Positions 1 to 64,000 of a stretch of DNA of 64,000 bases are shown here, in pieces. This stretch comes from an uncultured Planctomycetales bacterium. Its GTDB lineage: Bacteria > Omnitrophota > Gorgyraeia > Zapsychrales > JAHFFX01. Numbering within the stretch: the stretch's first letter is position 1; the number at the start of each line of letters is the position of its first letter. A program made the position numbers and the translations under genes. The notes below the pieces were generated by a model. That model saw nothing but the letters and a program-made list of their open reading frames with translations. It was not told where the DNA came from and did not search any database. The DNA lies in the NCBI GenBank assembly GCA_964612665.1, contig CAZTCI010000001.1:508896-572895 (forward strand). The letters run 5' to 3'.

Positions 1-3000
1 ATGCAGCACACTTCCTAAACTGTAGTAATTGGGAAGCGGTCGCGTTAAAACAGCGGTCAAGAGACCTTCGACCCAGGCGAGGCGAATGTCGACGTGCTCT
101 GTTAAAGAAGTGATTTGATAACCAGGCTGGCTTTTAATAAATTCCCACTGCTGCTTGATTTGACGCACAAATGAAACGACGCGGTCAAACACCGACTTGA
201 TTTCGCCAGCTATATTGTCGTGCTGTCTTTTAATTGTTTCGTTGATCTCTTTAATTAAGTCCATTAGGTTTTCATAACTGAACTCTTCTTTAATGGCCAA
301 TGAACTTTCTCTTTGAGTGGCAGCATCAGTTATCTCATCCCAATAAGACTGCACAGTTTCAGTAATAAGCTCCAGGGCGTTTCTCACATCATGCAAGCTG
401 AATAGCATTACTGCTTCAGTTTCTTTACCTTCTTCTTTATTCTCCGACGGAGGGATCTCCTCTCCAAAAAGACCGGCCACCAAATTACAGAGTCTTTCTC
501 GTCCAGCGATCTTCGGAATACGGATGACCTTACCTTTATAATCTTGGTTAGGTTCAACTTCAGTCCAGTATAAAGAATCTGTAATACCATACCCTCTAAA
601 ATCATAAGCCAGGATATCGTCGTCTTCACCACTTCGAATGATCATGGGATTAGGGAATCCGATTCTTTTCATTTCCACAATCAATTCAATGCCCGCATTA
701 TTCTTTCCCATCTGATTATCCGTCAACAATAAGTCAACGAGTTTTCCTTCTGCCAAAAGCTGATGATACGTTGATAAAGCCTTTTCCTTGTTGGCAGCCG
801 TATATACTTGATAACCTCTTTGTATTAAATCATTGGATATTGTCTCAAGCACGTCTTCGTCGTCGTCAACCAGCAAAATTAAGCGTTTATACGCCTGAAC
901 ATTGGGAGTTAAAATGGATAAAAGAACAATCATCATTAACCAATCTAACGACACAAAAATGCCTAATGTGGCTCTGGACTCCACTCGCGTTGAATTCTCC
1001 AACCCATTGAACCACCGTTCGACAATTAGCTCGAAATTCCGCAGTTTCGGATCGAATTGCGCTCTCATTTGGATCAGAAGCGATTGGATTTCCTCAATAT
1101 CTCTGAGCGAATTCATTCTAAAATCGGCTTCAAGAATTTTTCGTAAGGAATCAATTAGATATTGTTTCCCATCGGGGATAAAGGCCTTAAGTAATTCTAC
1201 GATTCTGGTCCTCGAGAATCCTCTATTCATCAAGCGCAAAACATGTTGGTTATTTAAAAAGGCCACAATATTAATTGCCGCAAGAATGTCGACATCTTCT
1301 AGGAGGAAAAGCATTTCGTTTAGTGAAATAAATTGCCCGGCTATTCTTAAATGCCAACTGAAAGAAGTCTTAAATTCTTCTTTTCTCGGCAGGCGATCCG
1401 CTTTATTTACAATCCGCATAAAACGCGCCAGCGAATTGATGCCCATTAGATAACCATCAAACGGTCCTTGTTTTAAGAGTTGCATTGCGAATATATCAGT
1501 CAAAAACTGCGGCGTAAGATCCTTTGTGTCCGTCGTCGAATAAAGTGGAGAGCTACGATTGAAAAGCTCTCGAAGGAACTCATAATAGGACAACACATTT
1601 TTCTGAATGTCCTGATAATCAGAAACTCCCGCATCAACAGCCAGCGCCACGGCCTGGCCAAGCAAAGCCAAGTACTGCGGCTGGCTGATTCCGACGGGTT
1701 CAGTGAGTCTCCATAAATCAGAAATTAGCGTGTCGACACTTACTGGAATATTATCTACCCCAATTATGTGCTTGAATCGATTGAAGCTGGCAGCGACCAG
1801 ATTCTCATCGTTCCTAGATTTATCCAACCAAACTTTCTGCCACTTTTCAACCGATGAGAAGAATTCCACCTGAACAGCCGCAGGTTGTCCAATATCAGCA
1901 TCTAAATTCTCCTCGAGAATACGACCGTTGCTCAACACCAAATAATTAACAGGAAGCATTCGGATATAATCCAAATACATCAAACGATCCTCATCCCTAA
2001 AATCTTCAATCGCCGGTTCGATGAGAATGATTTGGATCGGTACTTTGAGACCAAACACCGCCTGCATGAGGGCAATAGCAAACTTCTTAAAAATGCAGTC
2101 AAATGCGGTACTGCCGATCAAAAAGACAGTCAATTTCTTGGAGTCTCGCTCTTGATTTTCAATTAAAGATTTCAAAAACTGGGCGGTTGAATGTCGCGAA
2201 TTGCTTGCGTGCCAGCGCTGAATTATGCGGTCAGGGCCGACGGGAGGATTCTCCGATTCGATGGCCGAGGAGAGAATTTTGCAAGGTTGCTGTGCCACTG
2301 AAAGTTCTTTCACGTCAACCGTTTTTTGATTCCACAAAATGGAACGTAAAAGATTGCCTGCTATTTTTGCGGCACTTCCTTTTGGCGAAGCCGAATAATC
2401 ATTAACAACATCGATTCCAATGCCCCGTACCGCCGCGATAGCTCCTACTGATACGAACAAGCCTGTCACAGCGCTTAAAACTGTCGGCAAAATCTGCGCC
2501 AGCATCCATAGGAAGAAGGTTAGAATATCACCGTGGGGTAAAACGATCATTTCATAACTTTCTTCATCCGACGACATAAATAGTTCTTGACCTTCCAACT
2601 CTTCTTCTAACGATGACAGCCCTTGAAACTCCTGCGTCAGATGTTCCCAGCTAAGTGGTATCTGTCTTTCTTGTGCCTGTATCATGACCAACTTTGCTTT
2701 TTCTTCATCCACACCTAATTGTTGAGCCAGGGCTTTGGGATTATTAATTAGCTCGTACCATTGTTTTTCTGTTACTTGTTTTTGCAAACGCCAGTAGCGA
2801 AGTAATTCTTGGGAGTGACCAAATTTCGCTTCCAATAAGCGTTTAACCACGTTTCTAAAAACAGCTATTACCATGTTATAAGTTAACGCGCCTAGGGCCA
2901 TGAGATAAAATGAGAAATGGAAAGAATAAACTGCTTTTGCTTTTGCTTTTGCTTTATCTTTATCCATCTTGAACTCTGCATCGGTAAATGCCAGCAAATC

Positions 3001-6000
3001 TGTGAATATAGAAATTCTGACTTGCCATTGACTGGAAAGTTTATTCCACGCTGTTGGCTTGCCATCAAATGTAATGATTGATGGCAATTCGTAAGATTGG
3101 CCCTGGACTTCTGAAATCCAATATTGTCGTATCCGGGATTTACCGAGAAATGTTTCGTCACTTCCAACAACAACGAGTTCTTCGATCAGTAATATTTCGA
3201 TAAAAACTCCCTTATCTTTCGCATAATCCATAATAATAGCGGCGGCATTCAAGAGACAATCGCCATATTTCCCGCCGAGCAGAACAACCTGAATACCGTT
3301 TTCTTGGAGAAGGAGATCTAAGAATTTATAAATACGCTGACGGTCTTCTTTAGAAGATTCATGAATTTTTTCGGGCTTGGGTTCTTCTAATTCTTGAACT
3401 ACGATCCCACGCTTTTTTAATAAAGTAACCAAAGATTTAAAAATCGGCTGCATCTCTCTTCCCAAATCACCAGAAACGCTACGATAATCCCTAACTTCGA
3501 AAATTCCAATTGTGAGAGACCTGATTCGATTTATAGCTACAAAAGATTCTTGAGATGATGTGTATTGATTTCGGCGTTTTTGTCGTTGAATAATAATAAA
3601 CTTGCCAAATTCAAAGATAACTATGCCCAAAATAATACTAACCATTCCCACAGTAAATCCCAACATCCCGGCCGTTTCTTTGGTGGCCTTTAAATAAATA
3701 ACATCCGCCGATAAATCTTTATGACCACCCACATTGATAATCATCTGCTGTTCATACGCTAAAGAAAGCGCGGCCGCTTCGTTGATTTCAAATCCGGCGG
3801 ATTTGACCTGAGCGATCAGTTGGTCTTTAAGTTCGCCGAGCGGACCAAAGGATTCTTCAATCATTTCACCATTGAAGGAGACGAGATGTTTAGTTGCCTT
3901 AATAATATGTATTTCACCTCCATGGGAAAGGACGTTATAAACCTCAGATAAAACTATGGACGGCCTCGTCGATTCAAGCACGAAACTAAGCAAGGCCACA
4001 TCAAACGTCTCTGGCGCAAACGACAAATGCTGGGCGTCTCCATTCACCCAGAGACCATCGCTTACTGTGTGTTGCACGATGCGTATCTTTGAGAAATTAT
4101 TATCTAATCCAACAACGACATTCCCCTGTCTTCTTAACTTACCGGCGATGCCGCCGGAACCAGTACCTACATCCAAAATACGATGACCGCTCCCAATTTC
4201 CTGCAGATACCAAAACGAGAGCATAAAAGAATTATTAATAGTGTGCCGCAACAAATCCTCCAACGTTATGATGATGGGCTTACGCACGGCGGCAACAGAG
4301 ATCATTACTACAAGCAGCATCCATTTTATTAATCCGACGAACCAGATCATCGAAATCAAAGAATAAATATCTACATACAGCGAATTATATTGGCCTTGTT
4401 TATAATGTTCATTCGCACGCCTGATCAATTCTTCATGGATCCGATCACCAATCGGAATCATCCCTCGCCGGTGATTATCGGCCAAATATCCGAGCGCCTC
4501 TGCCAATGTTTGCGCGGCGATGCCGAAAAATAGGCGGACATCATTTGTGCCCATTATGCGGGCCGCGGGATTGGGCGCTGGGGGTTTTTCACGCGCGATA
4601 AACTGGCGGATTTCTTCCAGGACATTGAAGACTTCGGTGAGTTGTTTGAGTGTCTTGACCGATAAATGCGGTTGCGGTTCAACAAAGACAATTGAGTTGA
4701 CCAAGGCCAGCAGATGGTTTTGAATTTGATATGCATAATTATCCAGGTCTTTTATATTGGTCTGCTCGGCAACATGCATTTCATAATCTAAATCTTGATT
4801 AGGAAGATCAAGGATTTTGATCGACAACAGCCCTTTGTGTTGCATCTGTTCCAAAGCCGTGTACAAGGCGGCCATTGATTCCATGAAACCTTCACCCGAC
4901 GGAATATAAGTTTGATTCTTTAATTTCGGACCTTCGCTTCTCTTATCTTTCTTGGGCACAGACTCTTTCTGCGTGTAAGGTAAGAAAACGGCGCCTAATT
5001 TTTGGTTGTCTTTCTTGCCATAAAGGAAAAATTCAATCGCCAGCTGCGGAAAGACCCGGACCGTTTTGGGCAAAGCATCAATAGAAAATCTTTGTATTGT
5101 GACGTCCGCTTTCTTAATCGAGACATACTTGGGGTCCTTAAAGAAAATGACCGCTTCTCCATAATCCGTTGAAATCAGGAACTCAACCTTTTCGCCGGCT
5201 GCAAGATTTTGCTCAACCGCTTTCAAATTGATCGTCAATTCAGACTGGGAATTCTGTTCAAGTACTTCTTGTTGGGAGATCGGCTGTCGTCGAGGATGAT
5301 AAGAAGCAACGTCGAATGAACTTCCTTCCAGCAGCATAAGGATAGTTACGACCAAATAGATATTTTTGAAAAGTTGGAATGAAGATTTAAAGCGCGACGC
5401 GAAAACAGCAATTAAAACTAACACCGCGATAATTACCCAAAACTCTTGTGAATGAATAAGGGAAAAATTACTTCCCTCATCAACAGCATTCAAATCTCCA
5501 TTCTTGGCTCGAACTTCCCAAGTTTTATCAGCTTGTTGGTAAGAATTCTTTTGAATCGCCTCTCTAACTCTTTGAGTCAAATCATTTTCGTCGATGCCGC
5601 CAACGTCGATCCAATTCACGAAGGCAGCAATAATATGCTCCTGAAATTCCTCCGAACTTGCCGACATCCTCACTCCGATTTCCATAAATTCTTTGGCCGC
5701 CCTTTTGAGTTCTTCAATGGCTTGACTGCGTAATGACAAATCCTCGATGCTTCTCGCCAGCGTCCATCTCAGCTGATTGTTTAAATACCGTATGAACGTC
5801 TTTAATTTCTCCATATCTCCCTCGAGTAACTTAATTTTCCATAATTGATTGGCCAGCCGGCTGATCGTTTCAAATGCCTTTTGCCAGGTCTTTTCCGACG
5901 ATGAAAGCGAAAGACGCTCTGCCATTAAAAGCAAAGTCTCATCCAAATATTTCAACTCATTCGATGGATAAAAAAATAAATAGCTATCGTAATCATCCAT

Positions 6001-9000
6001 GCGTCCCATTGCGTGGCTATGATAAAGATCTCGCTCGGGAACAAGGGCGATATTCAAAACATAATCTCTGAACGGTGCTTTTTCATAACTGCAATTTTTT
6101 TCGTATCTAAGCCAACCATCGAGATTTTCCATCGCCATTGAAAAAGATCCACGAAGTCCCGGGTTCGCCCTCCAAGCAACGATTTTCAGTAAGAGCTCTT
6201 TCAGTTTGTGATTTTCAAGTAACCGGCCCGTCGCTTGTCCTTGCCAGTTTAGTTCTTCCACATTAAACAACATCTGCGCCAAATATTGCGGAATCGAATT
6301 TAGTCGCCCTTCGGTCCCCCAAAGATCCAGGGCATTTGTTGACTGAGGATCGTTCGAGATCGCAGGATCAAATGTTTTGAAGTCCAGCGCCTCTTTGAGC
6401 ATCCATAACGTTAGATCCTCATAAGTAAAATCGGAAAATCCGCCATTACGCAAAGACAACGGCTGCTGTAATTGTTCACTCATAACAAAATAAAGTCCGA
6501 TCAATCGTCGGAGGCCTTGAATCAGCGGCGGGAAGTCAATCGGATAAGTTCTTTCTTTATCAAAGTGCATTCCAATTGTTCGCACATGCAACAAAAAGAA
6601 TATCGATGTCCAGGCGGTTAACCATTGTTCTTTCAGTTGTCCACCTGCCCAAAACCACATTCGTCGGGTTCCTATTTCAAATGGTTCGACATCCTCAAGC
6701 GAAGCCAAGCGCACAATATCCTGATTGGGATGACCATACTTTGATAACCAGCCTCTGGCTTTCCAATACCGACGCAGACAATCGCCGATCAATGAAAGCT
6801 CTTGCTCCGAAAGTGGGAGCAAATGACCATCTCCTGTCTCACTATCCATTCTTTCAGAAGTAGCATTCACAATTAGATAACCTAAGAGCTTTGTGAAACG
6901 TTGACTCTCGTGAGTGAGAGAATCAAAAATGGTTGAAGCATTAGCATTATGCAGGCTATACAAAACATATCTTCTCTGCTTTTCGTTATAATGTTCCGTA
7001 TTCAAATCTATCTTAGAATCTAACGTAAATTCCCACGCAGGTGGAAGTAACATGCCTTGCGAATTGATATACCCTAGTTGAACAAGATCATTAAATAACT
7101 GTGGCAAGTCTTTGTCAGGAACAATCCCCTTAAAACTTTTCAAGCTTACCGCATCATATTGATCGAGGAGGTTTGTCAGTGTTTCGATCCATTGCGCAAC
7201 GGGCCGCGATGTATTCTGAGCATTGGAATCAGTTAAAGTAACTTTCTGCTGTCTGACTGAGAGACGACGCCAGAAACTCTCTCCCCATGACAACTTCAGC
7301 ATCATCAAAATCCCGAAGACAATCAGCGCAAGCCATCCCCAACTTCCTTCCGCACCCGTCGTTGGCCAGAGAATCAGATGGCTGCTCAATTCATTTCCCG
7401 ACGCTGATTGAGCACTCAACATCACGATCCCCATCGCAGCGGCAATCATTCCGCCGCGCAGGCGTCCCCAAAATCCTCGTACTAAGCGAATTGCTAACGT
7501 AACAACGAGACCCGCAGTAATGACGGTCAATAATCGATTGAGAATAGATTGCAAAAGGTTTGAAAAAATAGGGTTGTGCTGCAGGAAGGAAAGAAGCGGA
7601 GTATCTTTTTTGCCGACGGGCGGGGCGTTGGGCTGCATCTTAGCATAGTGCCACACAATCAAAATACTAACGCCAATTAAAATCAATAGATATTGCACGA
7701 GTGAGTAGGTGTCCATGTTGAAAATGTTATTTGTTTTAGTCTCCCGATCAAAACCTCCATCCCGTTCGGCGAGCATCAGAAAAGCCGTCTCGGCGATGTG
7801 CATGTCGCTGATGCCGTGATGCAGATAGATTTTATGCACGCTGCGCGTCGAAAGACCGTTTCTGACGAGGCCCAGGTCCCAAACGCCCTGTCCTAACCGC
7901 AACCGATCACCGATTCCAGCGAGAAACTCCGGCGATGCATCCGCGACGGTAACAACCGGGGTGAACTTCCGTTCAGTCTTTGGAATTAATTTTTCTAATT
8001 GTTCGAATAGATTTTCTCTTCCTAACCGTCCAAGAAGAAGATTGGGGCTCGTCACCACAATCACATTGGCGTAAATGGGATAATTTTTATGAAGTTTCAA
8101 AAGCTCGTCGGACGCGGACAAGGCGGCCTGGACCATAGGACCGATGGCGACGATGTTAACCACATTGTCATCGGGATGGTAATCAGGAAGATGGCTGTAA
8201 TCGACGAGCCGGTAACCGCCTTTGAGAATTTCTGGGCCGAGACGCTTGATGGCGGCGGGTTCATTAAGGCCGGAATAAGTTTTCTGTTCCCGCAACCGCC
8301 GGAACAATCCGCTGCGTTCAACCAACAGGCTCGATGCGCGGATATACACGGCGTTACGCCCGTGGTCATGGCCGGTCAACATAAGTTCAAAGGTTTTTTT
8401 CAATATATAATCTAACTCGTCAAGAAAAGCCGGTTCCCACATAACCGTGTTGGGCATCGCCCGGCCGATGTCCGCCGAGACACTCGATTGATGTTGAGCA
8501 CCGTCGGTGGCCAGCGTTGGGCCGGACGGTGTTCCGACAGCAATAAATTGTGAACCCCAGTACTGGGCGTAAAAAAATTGATCCAGCGCCCGGCGGAATA
8601 AAAACATATCATAGATCGTAACAACCGGAATCAAACGCACGCCAAACAAATCATAAGCCTTGCCAAAAGCCGCCGCCAAGGTCACGGCGTTCATTTCTGT
8701 AATGCCAATGCGTAAATGATTTCCCGCAAATGAATCGGCGCTGACAACACCTTGAGTGGCGCCAGGAGCAATCATTCCCGTAGATGATCCAACATCCGGA
8801 GAAATCGTGACCAACCGCGGCGCTATTTTCTGCCAGAAGCGATCGTCTTCGGAAAGGTCCGCCGCCGCCGATTGACTGAGTAGACCTTTCACCCTATTAA
8901 TCGACATACCCAGATATGTCTGCGTTGGAATTCTCCCGCGGGCCGGTGAATAAAGTTTTTCCGGCCAGATTTGATTCTTTAATTCTGCTTCAAACGCCGC

Positions 9001-12000
9001 GCGGTTTGCATCGATCATTTGCTGCGCTTCGGCGGCTTCATGATCTAAACGTGAACGGACATTCTTAAGTGTCTTAAACTCGACGGAAGTTTCATTGAAA
9101 TTGGGGAATGGATTATCTTGCGGCATGCCTAATTCGTTACGGACCTGCGCCAATTCTTCGGGAGTCAATAACTGCGAATGGTTTCCTTCCTGACCAATCA
9201 TCGGTCTTAGACCCCAGCCTTTGATCGTATGCGCAATAATTACCGTCGGGCGATCGCTGGCGCGGGCTTCGCTCAAGGCTTTGATTAACTCAACCAAATC
9301 ATGGCCGCCCAAATCGGTAAAGAGCTCATAGATTTTTTCATCGCTGTATTTCTTCAAGAACCGCTTTATTGGCCTTTTCCTTTCCAAAGAGAGTTTCTTA
9401 TTCTTATCATCCAAGGGAAAAGGCCTAATATTGACTTTTGTTTCTTCCTTTGGATTCACAAAAGTCAATAAAGAAGAACGTTGTTCGATCATCCAAGCGC
9501 GGATTCCGGCGCCGTTTTGAGCGGAAAGATTTTGGTAAACTTTCTGGTCGATTGTTTCCATAACTTTCCTAAAGACACTTCCCCCTCGTCGGGCAAAAGC
9601 CGCTTGCAATTTTCGGCCCCAGCGCAGTTCAACGACTTGCCATCCAGCCGCCGCGTACATTCCGCGCAGTTGATCCAATTTCCAGTTTTCGGTATTTCCG
9701 TCGAGTGATTGGCGGTTGTAATCGACAATATGCGTCACGCGGTCCAAGTTAAATTCTTTCACTAACGTCAGAATCTCCCGCAGGTTTCCTTCTTCAGATT
9801 CAGCATCACCCAAGACCGCGAAGAAATGCGAATCAGAAACCGCATGGCCATGCGCCTTGAGCCATTTCCAAACAACGTTAAGTGCTAAGGCAACCGCCGG
9901 CCCTATGCCAACCGAGCCCGTCGGAATTTTGACGCCGTCCGGGTCCGCCATTCCCGGATACGCGTGCAGGCCTGGTTTGTCTAATTCATCCGTGTTGACT
10001 TCCGGATGCTTGGCGATGAAGGCGGCTTTTAATTCTTCAAGTTCTTTTAAGACTTCTGGCGCAAGACGGCCCCTGATATCTTCAGCCCTGAAATCAACCG
10101 GCAGCCGGACAGCGTTATCACGCAAACGATAAAGTGTATCGACGGGTAATCGACCTAAAAGATATTGAATGGCATGATACACCGGCGCGGCGTGCGGTTT
10201 GTGGGCGACAAAATCATGACCGCGCATGACAGCCAGCTCGAGGGCGATCATAATGTGCAATGCAGACGCGGATGCAGCCTGGTGCCCGCCGGTTTTAGGC
10301 AGTTCATATTTAATTTTATTGGCTTCATCAATTTCACCGATTGAAATCCCAAGCGCCCGACGGGCGATGCTTTCTAAAGCTTCGATGTCCTTCGGTGCAA
10401 ATCCTTCCGGAATTTTATCATTTCTATTTCGGGGAGGCCGGTGTCCGGATGAGCTCATTGCAACAATCATCATCGTGGACAAGAACAACGCAGCCACATG
10501 TCCACCTACGAAGTAGGACACAGCCAATAGTCCATCCAGTGCCAGCGCGATGAGGACAAGCGCAGTTGCAAATACGGTGGAGAGGTTTTGATCTGAGCAT
10601 TCTTTTATTCCATTTTTTGTTTTTTTGGTTTCCTGAGCTGAAAACTTTTTCCACCAGGCAAACGTTTCACTCAAACCCGTCCCAATATTCTTTTGTCGTC
10701 TCAACTTGTTGACAATCAAAATGATTAATGTTATGTTGGCGTCGAAAAGATCATTGATCAATAATTGCGTGGCCCTCTTTGAAAGATGGGAGAATCGTAA
10801 GTGAAGATCTGGGAATTTGAATGGGACAACTGGAATATTGAGCATATTGCTAAACATTCCGTAAAATCTCAAGAGGTAGAAGAAGCTTGTTATCGCCGCC
10901 ACGTCGCTAAGAAAACTAAAGATGACATTTATCTTGTCTATGGTCAAACGTATTCTGGCCGTTATCTTTTCATCGTTATTAAATATAAATCTAAAGGAAT
11001 TGTTTACCCTATAACCGCTCGAGACATGACTGATTCTGAGCAGAGATTCTTCCTTAAACGGAGGTAACATATGATTAAGAAGTCTTCTGTAATCCCAAAA
11101 TTTAAGAATGTCGCCGATGCGGCTGAATTCTTCGATCAACATGATACGACCCAGTTTCTCGACGAATTGCAACCAGCGCATCTTAAGTTCCCTAAGCCCA
11201 AGCATCTTTTGATCACCTTGAAACCTAAACAAATAACGAGGCTCAGACGCTTGGCCGACAAAATGGGTAAACCTTCCGATCAAATTGTTGAGCAATGGAT
11301 CACCCAAAAACTTGCCGAAGGGTAATGATCTGCCCAATGTGGCACGGCTCAATTTCTTTACAATCTCTTTAAAAACGCCTTTCGCTTTATCTGAGGATTT
11401 GGTTCGAATCGTCAGTATCAACAGCAACACATCAACGGCCAACACAAGGAACATCAAATGTAATCCCGGTCCCGGAACAAAATATCCTTTAAACACAACC
11501 ACCGGACGTTCCTCATCAGGCAGAAAACCTAATTCCTCGCGGATCTCCTCGGGAGATATTCTTAAAATATGTATGGGCTGAGGATGATCTTCAAAATATT
11601 TTAAGAACAGGCTTGTAATCGTTTGTCCGTTATCAGAAGCAATATGAAGACGGCCCAGAATAAAAAACGTGTCTTTAGCAGCTTTTCGGCCGCGCGATAA
11701 GATATTGATCATATTGGGGAACATGAATGGTTCCCTTAGGTCAATAGCGAATCTAAAGTTCTCCGAGACATTGATCCCTTTCAAAATTTCTTGAACAGCG
11801 GGCTCGGCCTGGCCGACGACATGATTTTCGCGTTTGGCTCTGGCCATGAGGGCTTTTATAAAAACAACAGTCAAATCACGCCAAGTTGTCAAGTCTTTAA
11901 GCATGTCCGCTGAGTTATCCGGGGGCAATGTTACGATCGCGGAAAAAACGAGACTGTTCCGGGTGTTGTAATAAAGAGAAATGCGTCTGTATAACGTTGT

Positions 12001-63000: not shown

Positions 63001-64000
63001 GATCAGTCCGGAAATTGAAATCTTTTCTTGTGACTCCAAACGAAATGGATCTCTCACCAATACATCCATATCCTTCGGTTCCGACGGATTAGCCGCCTCC
63101 AACGCTTCTTGAATCAACGCGCTCACCGCGGATTCATCCATTTCCAGAATTTTTCCGGCTTCTTCAATTTCCAACGACGCCACGGCGATCAAATCTGAAT
63201 CCCCTTCGGTATTTTTATAACTCAACAATCGGCTGCCCCATAATGTAAATTCATGTTCAATCAGCGTGCTTAAAAAGATCGACTCGCTGTGATCGATGAT
63301 GGATTTTAGACGTTGGAATTCCGATGAGCTCGGATTGCGAAAGGCCTCGCGAATGCGTTTGGCGGCGCGTCGTTCAACAAATGCGGCTTCTTCACCTTCC
63401 ACATATTGCCTGAGGAAGAACTGTTCGACATCCTCAATACTCTGCATGGCCTTGACGCTTTGAACCAATGCCTCAGATAAATTCGCATTTGGCATTGAAT
63501 CTCCATTGGTCTCAGAGATATCTTCAACCTGGATATATCTCAACAACCGCTCATCCAATCGACGAATCATGTCGACTTCACTCACGGGATCGAGAATATC
63601 CCCGAGCACTCTCATAAGAATATCATTTATTCCTATCTTGGCGCGGGGGCTGTTAATGTCTTTCCTAAGCGTGTAATACAATAAAGTGATCTCCCGTTGG
63701 CGCCATTCGTATTGGAAAAAAATGCGATGGTCGCTCCACGGCAATTCCTGAATATGAGTCTCTGCGAAAATACTTGTGAACGCCTTTCCGATACTTTTCG
63801 GCTCGATCATCTGATTAACCCCACTGATCCAACGGGCGAGTTGATCCAAAATTTGATTTGTTTGATCGGCTGTCAATTCGTTAAACATCTGGCGATAAAA
63901 CGCAAGCGAATACCGCAGGGTTAATGGTAGAATCGCCGTCGTTCGAATCTCCGACGATTCATGGACCTGACCATTTCCATTATTTTTGATCGATTCTTTT
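1..64000 (-). CDS. Giant multidomain, probably membrane-tethered protein. One continuous reading frame covers the whole window, partial at both ends, with at least 21,333 codons in view.
   Basis: Minus-strand frame with codon first bases at positions divisible by 3. The provided track has zero complete ORFs in this frame, versus 24 and 8 short ones in the other two minus frames. About 15 manual spot translations between 600 and 64000 are all stop-free, in the same frame, and give recognisable domain motifs. No in-frame start or stop lies in the window. Confidence 0.85.
545..890 (-). other. Response-regulator receiver (REC) domain within the giant ORF.
   Basis: Translation of the reverse complement of ~900-560 reads KRLILLVDDDEDVLETISNDLIQRGYQVYTAANKEKALSTYHQLLAEGKLVDLLLTDNQMGKNNAGIELIVEMKRIGFPNPMII. 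This carries the acidic pocket DDD, the phospho-acceptor in LLLTDNQM and the conserved K. Confidence 0.8.
2933..2956. repeat. Simple hexanucleotide repeat (ttttgc)x4, encoding a (KA)n / DKDKAKAKAKA low-complexity stretch in the giant ORF.
   Basis: gcttttgcttttgcttttgcttt is seen directly. Minus-frame translation gives KMDKDKAKAKAKAV. Confidence 0.8.
3900..4215 (-). other. Class I SAM-dependent methyltransferase domain embedded in the giant ORF.
   Basis: The reverse complement of 4206-4141 reads LQEIGSGHRILDVGTGSGGIAG, which is motif I (GxGxG). Downstream are VVGLDNN and VNGDAQHLSFAPETFDVALLSFVLE (motifs II/III), ending near HGGEIHII. Confidence 0.75.
7720..10440 (-). other. Pyruvate-dehydrogenase E1 (AceE-type, homodimeric ThDP enzyme) domain of about 900 aa. 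It sits in frame within the giant ORF, with hydrophobic helices on both sides.
   Basis: Manual translation matches E. coli AceE along its length. GGHQAASASALHIMIALE...HKPHAAPVYHAIQYLLGRL aligns with GGHISSFASAATLYD...GHISPGVYARAFLEGRL. GIGPAVALALN...FAVLGDAESEEGNL...DGNTENWKLDQLRGMYAAAGWQVVEL aligns with MGLGPIGAIYQ...LGDGEMDEPES...DGPVTGNGKI...GAGWNVIKV. IIAHTIKGWGL aligns with ILAHTIKGYGM. A C-terminal GLSTRSVHKIYLHHGISDMHIAE is present. There is no stop before or after the domain. The flanks are LVLIALALDGLLAVSYFVGG on the N side and YSLVQYLLILIGVSILIVW on the C side. Confidence 0.8.
10709..10737 (+). promoter_or_regulatory. Sigma70-like promoter for the nested brnTA operon: TTGACA-N17-TATGTT.
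   Basis: ttgaca at 10709-10714, a 17-nt spacer, then tatgtt at 10732-10737. A palindrome TTGATCAA at ~10763-10770 lies between the promoter and the start codon and is a possible operator. The GTG start is at 10801, preceded by GGGAGAA. Confidence 0.55.
10801..11067 (+). CDS. brnT: BrnT-family (DUF497) type II toxin, nested antisense inside the giant ORF.
   Basis: The 88-aa product MKIWEFEWDNWNIEHIAKHSVKSQEVEEACYRRH...GRYLFIVIKYKSKGIVYPITARDMTDSEQRFF has the BrnT signature (FEWDxxKxxxNxxKHxV...EA, a GR.L.VV core and a C-terminal ARxxxxxE). It has a GTG start and is followed 3 nt later by brnA. Confidence 0.85.
   Translation: MKIWEFEWDNWNIEHIAKHSVKSQEVEEACYRRHVAKKTKDDIYLVYGQTYSGRYLFIVIKYKSKGIVYPITARDMTDSEQRFFLKRR
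11071..11325 (+). CDS. brnA: BrnA-family antitoxin (ribbon-helix-helix C-terminal region).
   Basis: The 84-aa product reads ...FKNVADAAEFFDQHDTTQFLDEL...LRRLADKMGKPSDQIVEQWITQKLAEG. The FK.xxEAxEFWDxHDxTDY N-terminal motif is typical of BrnA. A strong SD (aacGGAGGTaacatATG) precedes it, and it is operonic with brnT. Confidence 0.85.
   Translation: MIKKSSVIPKFKNVADAAEFFDQHDTTQFLDELQPAHLKFPKPKHLLITLKPKQITRLRRLADKMGKPSDQIVEQWITQKLAEG
12930..13600 (-). other. Three tandem LuxR/GerE-type HTH motifs within the giant ORF.
   Basis: The reverse complement of 13296-13100 reads ILSELELHILRLLNKGNTTIEIGQALSSPAINIRSKISRLYKVLAVTSERRELIKKARKLGL. Upstream is LSSRHIAILKGLYAGLNDKDIAAQLETGSETIRKSRSQIHQLL, and downstream is LNILYGFVEGLSDQQIAERFNVKQKAVQAIWSKI. 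Confidence 0.55.
17350..17950 (-). other. Four consecutive ~48-aa helical repeats (XRE-like HTH pattern) in the giant ORF.
   Basis: LKVLRKSLRMTAKDVGALSKVRARRISALENGHVRESVDRWNIILNKL, LKILREALRMSPEELAALAHISRNRINDLKSKNARWKADDLALLLNTM, LKLFRNILELSPQKIADLSNTTPFKIKGLEKG.. and LKAVRESLGMSQKDAGLLADISARVINDIEIGRIYPRRRDWIRLW. The first two units are each 48 aa as written. Confidence 0.45.
19450..20520 (-). other. FAD/NAD(P)-binding Rossmann oxidoreductase-like domain (DAO-type) in the giant ORF.
   Basis: The reverse complement of 20520-20401 reads RSAFVAPSKRKVAVIGGGIFGITAAWFIAQDSRYDVTLYE, then RNKLFGGVSGNWDRRLH. This is a GxGxxG dinucleotide-binding motif followed by an acidic residue ending the second beta-strand. 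Confidence 0.6.
23030..23058 (+). promoter_or_regulatory. Sigma70-like promoter TTGACA-N17-TATTCT upstream of a nested small plus-strand ORF.
   Basis: ttgaca at 23030-23035, a 17-nt spacer, tattct at 23053-23058, then GGAGGGGG at 23068-23075 and ATG at 23083. Confidence 0.45.
23083..23205 (+). CDS. Small nested ORF of 40 aa (MHKRKDKNMNAINMTDIVRKSMQELVVPELKILQGDVQSL) ending at TAG. It may be the N-terminal part of a ~125-aa coiled-coil protein interrupted by an in-frame TAG.
   Basis: It has its own promoter and SD. It is in plus frame 1, so it is codon-aligned antisense to the giant ORF. The heptad pattern continues directly across the TAG into the next ORF. Confidence 0.4.
   Translation: MHKRKDKNMNAINMTDIVRKSMQELVVPELKILQGDVQSL
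23275..23460 (+). CDS. Coiled-coil small protein (NSRMDSL NSRMDSL EKRLDNL DKRVDGL ERQIHSM...), in the same frame as and contiguous with the upstream 40-aa ORF.
   Basis: This is track ORF 23275..23460 with a TTG start. The in-frame sequence from 23206 reads NDNLEIKADLRILNNRVDNLEKSLNSRMDSL..., clean heptad repeats. No TTA/CTA/TCA codons are used, so the antisense giant frame stays open. Confidence 0.4.
   Translation: MNSRMDSLNSRMDSLEKRLDNLDKRVDGLERQIHSMREDFKLALDIHERLTALEVKISHHN
28830..28960 (-). other. HTH_XRE-like motif in the giant ORF.
   Basis: The reverse complement of ~28945-28860 reads QGLNQESLAKLSGVDQTTISMIAAGNRTLPHASTISKLLMAL. Confidence 0.5.
33517..33536. repeat. GC-rich palindromic element cccaaccCCGGAggttggg (7-bp stem, 5-nt loop). 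A near-identical copy at 34114-34133 shares the flanking aaagtttttccaccttc.
   Basis: Both copies and their 17-nt upstream flank are seen directly. The flank alone recurs near 32,680. In the giant frame the copies encode SSPTSGVGKVEKLSA / SSPTPGVGKVEKLFA, just before hydrophobic helices. Confidence 0.6.
37715..37875. repeat. Left copy of a ~160-bp direct repeat (~88% identical to 38915-39075) bracketing the nested vapBC-like locus.
   Basis: aagcggaaaattccgtcgaggaataacatca...cgcgcggaggttttcaaggatgacgcgggatttggagattagaacagcggccatcaaaacaataatgagaatttccgcgag matches 38915-39075. In the giant frame both copies encode a linker module AEILII.L.AAVL.SKSRVILENLRAFYE.LKTSPPS...MLFLDGIFRFI. Confidence 0.7.
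38147..38175 (+). promoter_or_regulatory. Near-consensus sigma70 promoter TTGACA-N17-TATACT driving the nested VapB-like/PIN operon.
   Basis: ttgaca at 38147-38152, a 17-nt spacer, tatact at 38170-38175, then AAAGGAGA at 38185-38192 and ATG at 38200. Confidence 0.6.
38200..38391 (+). CDS. Small basic antitoxin-like protein of 63 aa (MTSLQDAMKIIKPLQNRFKKSHKSRRKTKIADDLLGAFKGATEGKSSSQCVRELRNSSYGKFK), upstream partner of the PIN-domain gene.
   Basis: It has a strong SD, and its 3' end overlaps the PIN ORF start by 17 nt (38375-38391), as is typical for type II TA operons. Family assignment of the antitoxin is uncertain. Confidence 0.6.
   Translation: MTSLQDAMKIIKPLQNRFKKSHKSRRKTKIADDLLGAFKGATEGKSSSQCVRELRNSSYGKFK
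38375..38842 (+). CDS. vapC: PIN-domain (VapC-like) toxin, nested antisense in the giant ORF.
   Basis: The 155-aa product is MVSLNNPSLLLDSDVLVSWL...MEIRFV...SPTDAILLSVATTLDNVVLITRDRELLKAASKI. The acidic residues are arranged PIN-style (LLDSDVL, E in the middle, TDAILL, TRDRE). It overlaps the upstream small ORF. Confidence 0.75.
   Translation: MVSLNNPSLLLDSDVLVSWLTLEEDILTHKKLWEAPHKIMTMVEENSSLGCSTIINLMEIRFVLRAKKKFSEHKITSSLNKLSEILKLFIPDEINLLKANELQSKYLSLSPTDAILLSVATTLDNVVLITRDRELLKAASKIVSASTPEEFLAKR
38915..39075. repeat. Right copy of the ~160-bp direct repeat bracketing the vapBC-like locus.
   Basis: See the left copy at 37715-37875. Confidence 0.7.
39250..39565 (-). other. GHKL histidine-kinase ATPase (HATPase_c) domain in the giant ORF.
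   Basis: The reverse complement of 39561-39521 reads MTHAFINLLKNAVY (N box). The reverse complement of 39435-39421 reads DNGPG (G1). Then GTGQGL (G2) and a C-terminal GASFFVTLP follow. Upstream helices resemble a DHp region. Confidence 0.6.
42200..43750 (-). other. SF2 helicase-like module (DEAD-like Walker A/B motifs) in the giant ORF.
   Basis: The reverse complement of 43680-43661 reads DTSAGKT (Walker A). The reverse complement of 43329-43303 reads LDEADYYLW (motif II, DEAD). The reverse complement of ~42280-42242 reads RDMRQIMARIARN (a motif-VI-like arginine finger). Confidence 0.55.
43960..45700. repeat. Tandem direct duplication of a ~1 kb unit (~85-90% identity), plus internal 65-bp sub-repeats at ~44697-44760 and ~44905-44968.
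   Basis: gataaagattccatctga(a/g)...cctcctcttccaacggcga...aaaagcaattccaaaataatgggcgagatgatggactga... recurs at ~43995 and ~45000, and the similarity continues for ~700-1000 bp. The sub-repeat gatgatgatagattcatcgatga(g/a)ctgaacattctc(a/g)ttctgctcaaaagcgataggaatctcg encodes DEIPIAFEQNENVQ(L/F)IDESIII. Confidence 0.8.
44150..44290 (-). other. HTH_XRE motif, with one copy per tandem-repeat unit. The second copy is at ~45150-45290.
   Basis: LTHLRKELDLSQTQFAEILQLSQSSVKNYEQGRFEISMERFFKSVHHLAHYFGI. Confidence 0.55.
50160..50700 (-). other. TPR-like helical repeats in the giant ORF.
   Basis: The reverse complement of 50640-50581 reads SLEQAWFTLFKGMIHFDQQH, continuing YVEANQAFVQALAIN..., with further W/Y...A...F...A spaced units downstream. 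Confidence 0.4.
59700..59870 (-). other. HTH_XRE motif in the giant ORF.
   Basis: SSSDLARQGLATKLGMSGNSIRRIENNLQFTQVAKIVQIANILQ. Confidence 0.45.

Follow-up and report, generated by a model that had tools for sequence, protein, structure and literature searches.

Toxin-antitoxin cassettes nested antisense within a stop-free giant reading frame resembling those of Omnitrophota

INTRODUCTION

Thousands of proteins of at least 10,000 amino acids (10 kAA) have been reported, with maxima of 85,804 and 147,155 amino acids (10.1101/2023.11.21.568195; 10.64898/2026.06.07.730766); published genes of this size number 5,761 in Nielsen & Lui. Those of Omnitrophota carry many transmembrane (TM) helices and a divergent SecA DEAD domain that lacks the scaffold and wing (West-Roberts et al. 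2023, 10.1101/2023.11.21.568195; Nielsen & Lui 2026, 10.64898/2026.06.07.730766), and the same two bioRxiv papers place PF08241, PF02518, and PF00072 among their commonest domains. It has been proposed in the literature that the divergent SecA-like ATPase aids export or insertion of the giant protein itself and that giant proteins are processed by C39/S8 peptidases; sparse proteomic support has also been noted. Proteins over 30 kAA are known in other phyla too, including Verrucomicrobiota, from published giant-gene surveys.

Genes embedded antisense in other genes are likewise known: Pseudomonas aeruginosa has long overlapping ones (PMC8850804), and further examples come from Escherichia coli O157:H7 (PMC9927249, PMC5960689). 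The published embedded genes are young and have arisen by overprinting within an older “mother” gene (PMC8850804; PMC9927249, PMC5960689).

Here, we analyze a 64-kb stretch of DNA (the window), which we read, with a probability of about 75%, as an internal piece of a real giant gene of the Omnitrophota type, into which mobile toxin-antitoxin (TA) cassettes have been inserted and are read through.

RESULTS

One frame is open across the entire window

The initial annotation held that the window is a single stop-free minus-strand reading frame and predicted no stops in 21,333 codons. Exact re-translation bears this out: the minus frame whose codons begin at multiples of 3 (the first is 63999..63997; whole frame, 1..63999) contains no TAA, TAG, or TGA in its 21,333 codons, against 849, 906, 1222, 1344, and 1212 stops in the five remaining frames, in which the longest open stretch is 978 nt. 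Even if the lowest stop rate among the other frames is assumed, a stop-free minus frame has a probability of only ~1e-376. The frame contains neither start nor stop within the window and, as had been argued, is invisible in the supplied ORF listing because it runs off both ends.

The frame is also coding-like throughout. GC1 exceeds GC3, which exceeds GC2, in all 1,000-codon blocks except codons 8001-9000, the block containing the PIN cassette described below, where GC3 is slightly above GC1; codon usage in each full block diverges from that of the whole frame by at most 0.021; and both off-frames are stop-dense in the coding-signal scan. The open frame, its uniform coding signal, and its in-frame domains support the proposal of a single gene of more than 64 kb that begins and ends beyond the window, although its translation as one unit is inferred. 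The accompanying suggestion that the product would be among the largest prokaryotic proteins survives only loosely, given the thousands of reported giants and their maxima: at no fewer than 21,333 amino acids, the frame is well inside the known prokaryotic range, and its true length is unknown.

A frame of this kind might instead result from a chimeric or collapsed assembly, or from an artificial concatenation from which stops had been removed, and it does string together domains that normally occur in separate cytoplasmic proteins. We regard such an artifact as highly improbable, since composition and codon usage are homogeneous over the 64 kb, and the roughly 90% of the frame that is non-domain sequence has the same coding signature as the rest. 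The window holds no long exact repeats; its repeats are all diverged (74 to 96%) and at most 300 nt long. Those at 44-45.7 kb and 37.7/38.9 kb, for which long-read verification had been advised, exist but are diverged (DNA, 84 to 91%; protein, 76 to 78%). Moreover, independent assemblies show both AceE in long cysteine-poor ORFs and the PIN cassette in stop-free frames. There is thus no sign of collapse or chimerism in the sequence, which, as no reads were available for the assembly, is not proof. No tRNA or Rfam families were detected in the window.

Domains and membrane segments follow the Omnitrophota pattern

All of the domain signatures named in the initial annotation were recovered in the frame by Pfam: Response_reg, Methyltransf_11, Transketolase_N/PDH_E1_M (AceE), DAO/NAD_binding_8 (the GxGxxG motif), SecA_DEAD/P-loop_SecA, HATPase_c, GerE (LuxR), and several HTH_3/HTH_31 domains (XRE). 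Each of the modules that follow is on the minus strand, and residue numbers are those of the giant frame. A divergent SecA-like ATPase motor (42085..43713, residues 6763-7305; SecA_DEAD and P-loop_SecA) retains a Walker A motif (SAGKT) and recognizable motifs V/VI. Of its sequence matches in the PDB, 22 of 22 are SecA (best, 1.3e-8), and an exhaustive HMMER search gave a best E value of 4e-11, with SecA_DEAD in all six of the matches sampled, five of them canonical full-length SecA. On sequence similarity, the exhaustive-search matches are only weak SecA relatives; a word-indexed homology search with this segment returned no matches. The SecA wing/scaffold (PF07516) had no match in any tile of the window frame, and the preprotein-binding domain (PF01043) was undetected in the giant frame.

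The remaining modules are those of enzymes, signaling proteins, and DNA-binding proteins. They include a response-regulator receiver (577..879, residues 21041-21141; E = 3.5e-10), an S-adenosylmethionine (SAM) methyltransferase (Methyltransf_11; 3910..4176, residues 19942-20030; E = 5e-14), the start of a FAD/NAD(P)-binding Rossmann domain (DAO/NAD_binding_8; 20302..20490, residues 14504-14566), a GHKL ATPase (HATPase_c; 39247..39570, residues 8144-8251; E = 2e-22), and tetratricopeptide (TPR) repeats (50131..50712, residues 4430-4623). A diverged tandem duplication with a unit of ~1 kb (43951..45663; DNA, 85 to 91%; protein, 76%) carries one XRE-type HTH_3 domain per copy (45145-45258 and 44101-44259). 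More modules of DNA-binding type lie within 13450..32109, namely, Sigma70_r4_2 (31987-32109), two HTH_3 domains (28813-28941 and 26059-26232), HTH_31 (17149-17289), and GerE (13450-13587), and a further HTH_3 falls outside this span (59701-59856). A 46-nt double-hairpin repeat occurs in three in-frame copies (at 32668, 33496, and 34093, spanning 32668..34138), each encoding SSPTxGVGKVEKLxA and adjoining hydrophobic segments. A scan for internal starts lent no support to the idea that the many HTH and enzyme modules of the sense strand originated as small genes taken up in frame, with relic start signals still attached.

Hydrophobic regions are in excess of expectation, with 48 at a Kyte-Doolittle (KD) threshold of 2.0 or above (10.1 ± 3.3 in shuffles) and 73 at 1.6 or above (38.6 in shuffles). 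An initial figure of ~92 TM segments was inflated, as shuffles of this hydrophobic composition yield ~39 at the same threshold, and some calls correspond to Rossmann strands or to antisense read-through. The 21,333 codons therefore probably encode about 40 to 75 TM helices, an estimate from a crude hydropathy method and not from TMHMM. A positive-inside test yielded no clear topology (K+R density was 0.144 beside short loops, against 0.162 beside long ones), and the membrane topology of the product remains inferred.

In these features, the frame matches the Omnitrophota giants. It is a single ORF of tens of kilobases that, at 21,333 codons or more, exceeds the 10,000-residue mark; it has numerous predicted TM helices along its length and a divergent SecA DEAD-type motor without wing or scaffold; its scattered PF08241, PF02518, PF00072, and TPR domains correspond to the “multi-enzyme / signal-transduction” architecture; and it consists mostly of unannotated, fast-evolving sequence with diverged internal duplications and is unique over its full length. 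It differs from them in having no glycosyl transferase, glycoside hydrolase, peptidase, NUDIX, dockerin, or TSP3 domain in these 21 kAA. Within this portion, the Archaeovorin subtype (West-Roberts 2023), in which the first four of these domain classes accompany methyltransferases, is not satisfied, as only the methyltransferase is present, nor is the dockerin-type/tandem-repeat scaffold subtype, in which dockerin, TSP3, or other repeats dominate, as the window has only a few diverged two-copy duplications. The N-terminal region, where a signal peptide or a C39 or S8 peptidase would be expected, falls outside the window. Conversely, AceE modules, HTH domains, cysteine depletion, and opposite-strand nested genes are unmentioned in the main text of both papers on Omnitrophota giant genes.

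An embedded AceE module suggests a possible link to Omnitrophota

The giant frame contains a full-length pyruvate dehydrogenase E1 (AceE; 7744..10416, minus strand, residues 17862-18752), identified by Pfam and by homology, that aligns with ordinary AceE proteins (~900 aa) at 31 to 36% identity over 100% of the query. Alignment to the E. coli E1 shows that the GD(x)nN ThDP motif and the residues matching E571 and H640 are kept; E. coli H407 falls outside the aligned stretches. The best database match is an Omnitrophota fragment (41%), and the five closest loci (41 to 49%) comprise three contigs of Omnitrophota metagenome-assembled genomes (MAGs) and two labeled “uncultured Planctomycetales.” The ORFs in which these closest relatives are themselves embedded measure 1,459 to >4,923 aa and contain 0 to 0.14% cysteine, the corresponding value for the window frame being 0.16%. 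A colinearity comparison found AceE to be the sole part common to the window and the Omnitrophota AceE loci, so those loci are not the window gene in split or fused form. None of them carries nested cassettes.

The scarcity of cysteine extends into the AceE module, which has none, free AceE relatives having ~0.8%; this regularity is unexplained. We rejected as its source a bias against codons that a single change would turn into a stop, as TTA, TTG, CAA, GAA, AAA, TAT, and TGG are used freely.

The initial annotation had noted a resemblance to the giant genes of uncultivated lineages without assigning the frame to any of them; the resemblance holds, and the architecture and AceE relatives suggest Omnitrophota. 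Because this link rests on one module plus architecture, with no marker gene in the window, the frame could be real and yet belong to another PVC phylum (Planctomycetota or Verrucomicrobiota) or to an unrelated phylum with giant genes, particularly in view of the two Planctomycetales labels and of the proteins over 30 kAA known elsewhere. We consider such an origin unlikely but well worth keeping in mind: the labels come from automated third-party MAG records, the majority of the closest AceE loci, including the best database match, are from Omnitrophota MAGs, and a SecA DEAD domain without wing or scaffold, combined with TM helices and PF08241, PF02518, and PF00072, is the published Omnitrophota combination. 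The affinity of the AceE module to long ORFs of Omnitrophota and PVC bacteria is observed directly, and assignment of the window gene as another member of the known Omnitrophota type is supported by these sequence comparisons; the giant gene itself would then not be new.

Three plus-strand units are nested antisense in the giant frame

The opposite-strand operons of the window were missed by the initial annotation. The first (cassette 1; 38147-38842, plus strand) is an intact antitoxin-PIN/VapC pair. It begins with a sigma-70-type promoter (TTGACA-17 nt-TATACT, 11/12 matches; 38147..38175) followed by a Shine-Dalgarno (SD) sequence, and then an antitoxin-like ORF of 63 aa from its ATG (38200..38391), antisense in the giant frame, that overlaps the start of the PIN gene by 17 nt. 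This small ORF matched no Pfam family and shares 36 to 46% identity with its counterparts upstream of PIN in five related loci. The PIN-domain (VapC-type) toxin gene (38375..38842; 155 aa; opposite residues ~8387-8542) is intact, is offset by one base from the codon-aligned antisense of the giant frame, and matches Pfam PIN above the cut-off (9.5e-9). It has 24 homologs with identities of up to 66%, and D12, D14, E59, D113, and D132 are invariant across the 25 family sequences; an AF2 model (pLDDT, 94.5) has VapC, FitB, and PIN toxins as its top Foldseek matches. The same gene pair occurs in an ordinary archaeal-type genome, and more distant family members in ordinary genomes adjoin a MazE-type or a 61-aa antitoxin.

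Cassette 1 thus resembles VapBC operons in having a small upstream ORF that overlaps a 155-aa PIN gene, catalytic acidic residues, a VapC-like predicted fold, and its own promoter. On sequence and structural modeling, it qualifies as a putative VapC/PIN toxin with an upstream antitoxin and a promoter of its own; toxicity, neutralization, and expression are inferred. It is bracketed by direct repeats (37709..37908 and 38915..39114), the first of which codes for a hydrophobic hairpin in the giant protein; the copies are 84% identical and spaced 1206 nt, i.e., 402 codons, apart. Analogous, locus-specific repeats bracket the cassette in the related loci L010 (spacing, 1023) and L016 (spacing, 1089).

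Cassette 2 (10709-11325, plus strand) is an intact, putative BrnT/BrnA pair. Downstream of a promoter-like site (TTGACA-17 nt-TATGTT; 10709..10737) are a BrnT-like ribonuclease toxin ORF of 88 aa with a GTG start and an SD (10801..11067), codon-aligned antisense to the giant frame, and a BrnA/CopG-type antitoxin ORF of 84 aa, preceded by GGAGG and beginning with ATG (11071..11325). The BrnT_toxin match covers the entire profile (1-77/77; 9.2e-7) at 29.5 bits, below the curated cut-off of 34.5, and the CopG_antitoxin match (profile 3-78/79; 5e-9) scores 37.2 bits, above its 28-bit cut-off. The gene order, BrnT first and the CopG/BrnA antitoxin second, is canonical for BrnTA, and each ORF is preceded by an SD.

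The third unit (23030..23460, plus strand) has a TTGACA-17 nt-TATTCT promoter, GGAGG, and an ATG at 23083 that opens a coiled-coil ORF, which is broken by an in-frame TAG (23203-23205) where the giant frame reads CTA-Leu; this gene has probably decayed. No bracketing repeats flank the third unit or the BrnTA cassette. In a sense/antisense codon score, BrnTA is the lowest in the window and the third unit the second lowest; the test assumes codon-aligned antisense and is valid for these two units but void for PIN. None of the other 161 off-frame ORFs of at least 70 codons matched a family, and no ORF follows the fourth perfect TTGACA site (42542). Promoter-like sites in the window number 17, against 17.7 in shuffles. 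Read-through of these small opposite-strand operons, stop-free but not native coding sequence, makes up ~3% of the giant frame; opposite cassettes 1 and 2, it covers residues 8386-8618 and 17559-17764, respectively.

Nested cassettes recur and lack stops in the giant frame

The PIN cassette is present on five contigs that represent four independent metagenome lineages (L010 and L011 are the same gene) at 51 to 57% identity. On all five, a minus frame without a single stop extends over the whole contig, in a phase identical to that in the window. Free-standing PIN relatives have 1 to 5 antisense stops in the cassette and 18 to 38 in its flanks. Nested cassettes have none in six of six cases, where synonymous resampling expects 2.3 to 4.4 for each; the probabilities of a stop-free copy by this procedure are 0.029, 0.018, 0.024, 0.0025, 0.077, and 0.006, values that are less independent if the four PIN lineages stem from one ancestral insertion. 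The exclusion of stops from the cassettes is itself evidence that it matters to the cell for the giant frame to be translated without interruption. The PIN frame is also the better conserved of the two frames read from the same nucleotides (10 of 10 pairs), and L009, L015, and L016 retain the -35, -10, SD, and ATG, which are weaker in L010, although the upstream sequence is unalignable.

These observations bear on whether the plus-strand ORFs are dead, unexpressed relics of insertion in a region where only the giant frame functions. Decay clearly does occur, as the internal stop of the third unit attests; promoter-like sites are overall at chance level, the BrnT score is under its curated cut-off, and there are no expression data for either strand. 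Relics are nevertheless an improbable explanation of a PIN-antitoxin pair that is intact (start, stop, and SD) in four independent lineages as diverged as these as well as in the window, that retains its catalytic acidic residues throughout the family, a confident VapC-like predicted fold, and control signals conserved downstream of unalignable sequence, and whose toxin frame is clearly the better conserved. Cassette 1 and the giant frame thus appear to constitute an antisense embedded pair, in that both frames are open and each bears sequence evidence of selection; expression of both strands is inferred.

The open frame could also be maintained without yielding one polypeptide, its segments being transcribed or translated from internal starts or the product being cleaved into many, in which case “giant protein” would be an overstatement. 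Convergent promoters inside the gene could interrupt transcription, C39/S8 processing has been proposed, and proteomic support is noted as sparse. Internal initiation has little to rest on: only 8 in-frame ATG or GTG codons among the 21,333 are accompanied by an SD-like motif, and, apart from a weak pair in the tandem duplication, none stands upstream of a domain. The absence of stops over 64 kb and the purged cassettes fit a dependence of downstream translation on upstream translation, and we judge a segmented product to be quite unlikely, noting that posttranslational cleavage could still take place and would not conflict with our reading of the window as part of one giant gene.

DISCUSSION

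The giant gene alone would be of modest interest, as one more fragment of a class catalogued in thousands. What is new is the set of three plus-strand units nested antisense within it, each with a TTGACA promoter and an SD; we found no prior report in the literature of TA operons nested antisense in a giant frame. Unlike previously described VapBC and BrnTA systems, both operons lie wholly inside a larger opposite-strand ORF, and their codon choice avoids stops in the giant frame. The arrangement resembles that of the embedded genes of P. aeruginosa and E. coli in that a protein-coding ORF is wholly contained, antisense, in a second coding frame, that neither frame is interrupted, and that there are signs of selection. 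However, the embedded families here are old, widespread, and evidently inserted, with the giant frame reading through them, and the overlap comprises a whole two-gene operon plus its promoter and recurs in several diverged lineages.

We envisage the giant product as a single polypeptide that would be threaded many times through the cytoplasmic membrane, with a SecA-like ATPase and ordinary enzyme and signaling modules lying between long, fast-evolving, cysteine-free spacers; its cellular role can only be inferred. The most likely history is that mobile TA cassettes were inserted into a very large, insertion-tolerant gene. The insertions that survived would be only those that left the giant frame in phase and stop-free; later selection may then have held that frame open through the cassettes, with the toxin gene remaining under selection at the protein level.

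For a possible role of the cassettes, the closest analogy is to the TA cassettes of sedentary chromosomal integrons (PMC7167474, PMC11551772), which are likewise small, carry their own promoters, and reside in large, recombination-prone DNA; by analogy, the nested units could penalize deletions that remove them. In the giant gene, they are inside a coding frame and not between cassettes, and the comparison extends to the possible role only.

The nested cassettes provide evidence, drawn from sequence alone, of selection for an uninterrupted giant frame, and they bear on whether giant ORFs are translated as predicted. The long antisense overlap is unusually clean: the majority of those claimed are short, of recent origin, and contested, whereas the embedded genes here belong to well-known families, with a confident fold and catalytic residues, in an arrangement that recurs at just 51 to 57% identity. 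Because overlaps of this sort are suppressed by gene callers, nested cassettes would have escaped the existing catalogues.

The cassettes further suggest links between TA systems and how giant genes are maintained or regulated. That nested TA operons belong to giant-gene biology as a recurrent and selected component, and are not mere tolerated passengers, is a tentative proposal, one that may well prove wrong. If it is true, one possibility is that they act as in-gene addiction modules guarding a huge, recombination-prone, and costly gene against deletion; another is that they are convergent-transcription switches that couple or oppose production of the giant protein and of a growth-arresting RNase. 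In that case, they would also be among the clearest homology-backed examples of long antisense dual coding in prokaryotes and would offer a built-in indicator of continuous translation of the giant frame.

An open frame of at least 64 kb

Exact six-frame re-translation bears out the initial annotation, which had read the window as one stop-free minus-strand frame: with codons counted from 63999-63997, there are 0 TAA, TAG, or TGA codons in 21,333, and each of the five remaining frames holds 849 to 1,344 stops, with a longest open stretch of 978 nt. Taking the lowest off-frame stop rate, the probability of such a stop-free frame is ~1e-376. As that annotation supposed, the ORF track is blind to this giant frame because ORFs running off the source are not listed, and periodicity and codon usage are coding-like along the whole length: GC1 > GC3 > GC2 in all 1000-codon blocks except codons 8001-9000 (the block with the PIN cassette described below), the Jensen-Shannon distance of codon usage between any full block and the whole frame is <= 0.021, and in the two other minus frames, each block holds 37-80 stops. 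Searches for tRNA genes and Rfam families found none in the window. Its DNA repeats are all diverged (74-96% identity over <= 300 nt), no inverted repeats emerged from the same scan, and the sequence gives no hint of a collapsed or chimeric assembly, though proof would take reads. The window contains neither end of the gene and comes without expression data, a taxonomic marker, or reads.

Modules and composition of the giant protein

Pfam families account for ~10% of the 21,333 residues in a tiled search, in which each of the domain signatures that had been named from the sequence was recovered and thus proved real. The matches, all on the minus strand and numbered here by residue of the giant frame, are XRE-type HTH domains at 1382, 6248, 6581, 11687, 12590, and 15571 (with a weaker one at 15466), TPR repeats (4430-4623), SecA_DEAD plus P-loop_SecA (6766-7224), HATPase_c (8144-8251), Sigma70_r4_2 (10631-10671), the start of a DAO/NAD-binding Rossmann domain (14504-14566), GerE/LuxR (16805-16850), a complete pyruvate dehydrogenase E1 (17862-18752), Methyltransf_11 (19942-20030), and a receiver domain (21041-21141). 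For a membrane-threaded protein, DNA-binding-type domains are unusually many (about 7 XRE HTH, 1 sigma-70 region 4, and 1-2 LuxR/GerE, at nucleotides 13450-59856 of the minus strand); no relic start signals were found upstream of them, and the two giant-gene preprints say nothing of HTH domains in their main text.

The SecA-like segment (residues 6600-7600) gave no match in a word-indexed search and only weak relatives in an exhaustive HMMER search (best E value, 4e-11; 108 matches at E <= 1e-3). All six sampled HMMER matches contain SecA_DEAD, five being canonical full-length SecA and the sixth a 1,932-aa protein with SecA_DEAD as its only domain, and all 22 matches to solved structures are SecA (best, 1.3e-8). 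A Walker A motif (SAGKT) stands at the start of the segment, and the structure alignment extends through NBD2, where motifs V and VI are recognizable; no tile of the giant frame matches the SecA wing/scaffold family.

Along its whole length, the AceE segment (residues 17900-18700) shares 31-36% identity with ordinary AceE proteins of ~900 aa. It retains the ThDP-binding GD...N motif and the residues aligned with E571 and H640 of Escherichia coli E1. Its best match, at 41%, is a "partial pyruvate dehydrogenase E1" that occupies an entire 3.6-kb contig of a Candidatus Omnitrophota MAG. Scanning GTDB genomes with a two-sequence alignment yielded five relatives, in three Omnitrophota MAGs and two labeled Planctomycetales, that are 41-49% identical, and a metagenome scan added one more. 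In these relatives, the module always lies within a long ORF, of 1,459, 1,862, 4,636, or >4,923 aa, and it is the sole part held in common with the window, the flanks being unrelated. The affiliation with Omnitrophota, which rests on one module and on architecture without a taxonomic marker, is thus inferred and not demonstrated. Among the AceE-bearing contigs, L008 (metagenome contig Ga0154339_1126) has antisense ORFs identical to those of L002, an Omnitrophica WOR_2 GWA2_47_8 scaffold; one organism or region was apparently sampled twice.

Helix-length hydrophobic segments are distributed along the entire giant frame. A first count of ~92 TM segments was too generous, since composition shuffles give ~39 regions at the same threshold; with the cutoff raised to KD >= 2.0, 48 regions remain versus 10.1 +/- 3.3 by chance, and the true number is likely to be roughly 40-75, from a crude hydropathy scan. 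A positive-inside analysis of the frame did not resolve its topology.

Internal duplications are few and old, among them two tandem 1-kb copies at 43951-45663, whose protein sequences are 76% identical, and a 67-aa hydrophobic hairpin in two copies 402 codons apart. A 46-nt repeat occurs in three in-frame minus-strand copies (32668-32713, 33496-33541, and 34093-34138) spaced by 828 and 597 nt, each divisible by 3; it folds as a pair of adjoining hairpins (~ -21 kcal/mol), encodes SSPTxGVGKVEKLxA beside hydrophobic segments, and is possibly a small in-frame palindromic element. Motifs of the "SSPV" type turn up again in the open frames of two metagenome contigs discussed below, L009 and L010. 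A hydrophobic motif, W-I/L-x-I/V-x-K-G-..., lies at several module boundaries (residues 8358-8376, 9925-9955, 11168-11200, and 11576-11608), and in one pair of copies, 52 nt of DNA are repeated with 90% identity (34146-34197 and 38865-38916); these copies could be recombination-prone linkers.

Cysteine makes up only 35 of the 21,333 residues of the giant frame (0.16%) and is absent from the 891 residues of the embedded AceE module; in 115 ordinary AceE homologs, the median is 0.81%, with just one below 0.2%. The long AceE-bearing ORFs of the related contigs have 0-0.14% Cys, versus 0.7-2.6% in most neighbors on the same contigs. Avoidance of stop-prone codons as the cause is rejected by the codon usage of the giant frame. 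Exclusion of Cys is known in exported proteins of bacteria without disulfide-forming machinery, and the depletion seen here would fit extracytoplasmic exposure, but it is still unexplained. The main text of neither giant-gene preprint mentions it.

The giant gene itself belongs to an already described class, the window being filled by one coding frame that runs unbroken for at least 64 kb and carries the hallmark modules of giant proteins of the Omnitrophota type. ORFs of Omnitrophota reach 85,804 aa and contain divergent SecA DEAD domains along with numerous TM regions (West-Roberts et al. 2023, bioRxiv 10.1101/2023.11.21.568195). Long proteins reach 147,155 aa, with thousands of at least 10 kAA; they are mostly sequence-unique, 94% have TM helices or a signal peptide, PF08241, PF02518, and PF00072 are among their commonest domains, and PF07517 (SecA DEAD) defines one architecture cluster (Nielsen & Lui 2026, bioRxiv 10.64898/2026.06.07.730766). 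The initial suggestion of a protein among the largest known in prokaryotes, if translated as a unit, holds only loosely, since a size of at least 21,333 residues is far from the record. The window fits the "multi-enzyme / signal-transduction" architecture of Nielsen & Lui (2026); in the part of the protein seen, it differs from Archaeovorin in lacking the set of glycosyl transferases, hydrolases, peptidases, and NUDIX and from the dockerin/TSP3 giants in lacking such repeats.

A toxin-antitoxin operon nested antisense in the giant frame

Checking the six longest plus-strand ORFs brought up a 155-aa ORF with an ATG start (38375-38842) whose match to the PIN domain spans almost the entire profile (E value of 9.5e-9, above the curated cutoff). 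Just upstream, and overlapping it by 17 nt, is a 63-aa ORF from ATG 38200, which has TTGACA-17 nt-TATACT (agreeing with the consensus at 11 of 12 positions) and a Shine-Dalgarno sequence ahead of it. The 24 homologs of the PIN ORF (144-170 aa, <=66% identity) are all PF01850, and D12, D14, E59, D113, and D132 are invariant in 25 of 25 sequences. An AlphaFold model built from the homolog alignment (pLDDT 94.5, pTM 0.87) most resembles VapC, FitB, and other PIN toxins, and distant relatives in ordinary genomes adjoin a MazE-type antitoxin or, in an archaeal-type genome, a 61-aa upstream ORF. On these grounds, the cassette (38147-38842, plus strand) is a genuine VapBC-like operon lying wholly antisense within the giant frame, at residues of about 8386-8618.

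The only named relatives of the nested toxin (P0249 and P0252; 38-42% identity) come from Methanomicrobia/Euryarchaeota MAGs, and one distant homolog (L018) is in an archaeal-type genome; the closest homologs carry no taxon label. These archaeal relatives are intriguing in that the cultured Omnitrophota relative preys on methanogens.

Recurrence of the cassette and selection on both frames

Five closer homologs, at 51-57% identity to the PIN protein of the window, lie on metagenome contigs L009 (2,934 nt), L010 (1,685 nt), L011 (1,672 nt; the same gene as L010 from a different sample), L015 (911 nt), and L016 (1,267 nt). All five contigs have the small upstream ORF (36-46% identity to that of the window) and one minus frame that is stop-free end to end, in the same phase to PIN as in the window. 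Free-standing cassettes have stops in that phase (one in L017, five in L012/L014, and four in L018/L019), and their surroundings have 18-38. A stop in this phase requires a plus-strand Tyr after a pyrimidine-ending codon or a His or Gln after a T-ending codon, so the PIN family is naturally stop-poor there. With the protein sequence fixed, synonymous resampling predicts 2.3-4.1 stops per nested copy, and the probabilities of observing none are 0.029, 0.018, 0.024, 0.0025, and 0.077; nested copies may share ancestry, which would make these values less independent. Over the same nucleotides, the PIN frame is more conserved than the giant frame in 10 of 10 pairs (by 8.8 identity points and 1.1 BLOSUM units per column), and the -35, -10, SD, and ATG are alignable across nested copies, further upstream sequence not. 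Together, the stop-free copies, the conservation of the PIN frame, and the aligned signals indicate, from comparison of sequences alone, that selection acts on the toxin gene at the protein level and, at a minimum, keeps the giant frame open.

Similarity between minus-frame translations of the nested loci ends at the cassette borders. Diverged direct repeats, made of host sequence particular to each locus, lie on either side of the cassette in all three loci where enough flank is available (window, 200 nt, 84% identity, spacing 1206; L010, 89 nt, 87%, spacing 1023; L016, 88 nt, 78%, spacing 1089), every spacing a multiple of three. This pattern fits either insertions at different sites with long target duplication or one old insertion whose flanks have diverged, and it does not decide between them. 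The open frame around the L009 cassette has diverged repeats of its own (1413-1894, 185 nt, spacing 297; 91-154/1666-1729, 64 nt, spacing 1575), likewise at multiples of 3.

A second cassette and a probably decayed third unit

Scanning every off-frame ORF of 70 codons or more (161 in total) recovered a second cassette (10709-11325, plus strand), which opens with a promoter-like TTGACA-17 nt-TATGTT at 10709. It encodes a BrnT-like toxin (10801-11067; SD and GTG; E value of 9.2e-7 over the whole profile, below the curated cutoff) and a BrnA/CopG antitoxin (11071-11325; GGAGG and ATG; E value of 5e-9, above the cutoff). Codon-aligned antisense to the giant frame, it contains 0 TTA, CTA, or TCA codons versus 4.4 expected (P(0) = 0.006 by synonymous resampling) and has the lowest sense-versus-antisense codon score in the window. 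The second-lowest score coincides with a third plus-strand unit (23030-23460), comprising TTGACA-17 nt-TATTCT at 23030, GGAGG, and a coiled-coil ORF from ATG 23083 that has only generic coiled-coil matches in Pfam and is broken by one TAG, read as Leu in the giant frame. This nested gene appears to have decayed without the giant frame being closed.

Promoter-like sites over the whole window are no more frequent than chance (17 versus 17.7), and three of the four perfect-TTGACA sites on the plus strand are the promoters of the three nested units; the fourth has no ORF downstream. The units make up ~3% of the window and were scored as slightly AT-richer (GC of 0.40-0.455 versus 0.447). No nested cassettes were found at the Omnitrophota AceE loci examined, and nesting is therefore not universal. 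The longest plus-strand ORF (20245-21168; 307 aa, TTG start) has no family match and a low sense/antisense codon score (z of about -2.4); the giant frame is GC-rich there, and this is probably a chance antisense ORF.

Implications for giant genes

Intact toxin-antitoxin operons lie nested antisense in the giant frame, and statistical and comparative evidence, from sequence alone, supports maintenance of both frames. Known embedded antisense genes of bacteria are young products of overprinting (PMC8850804, PMC9927249, PMC5960689), the reverse of the situation here. Giant ORFs with genes antisense to, nested in, or overlapping them do not come up in the main text of either Omnitrophota preprint, one noting an antitoxin merely among flanking genes, and a full-text literature search for operons nested antisense in giant genes returned nothing relevant.

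The product of the giant frame is inferred to be a membrane-threaded mega-polypeptide, with enzyme and signaling modules displayed along the membrane and a SecA-like motor that might power its own insertion or export, as proposed for such proteins (West-Roberts et al. 2023). It remains open whether the nested cassettes affect expression of the giant gene through convergent transcription and fully complementary RNAs and whether they might also stabilize it against deletion, by analogy to the role proposed for toxin-antitoxin cassettes in large integron arrays (PMC7167474, PMC11551772). Most simply, the cassettes would be mobile addiction modules inserted into a very large target, surviving only where the giant frame stayed in phase and stop-free; that they remain stop-free speaks for a deleterious effect of any break in giant-frame translation.
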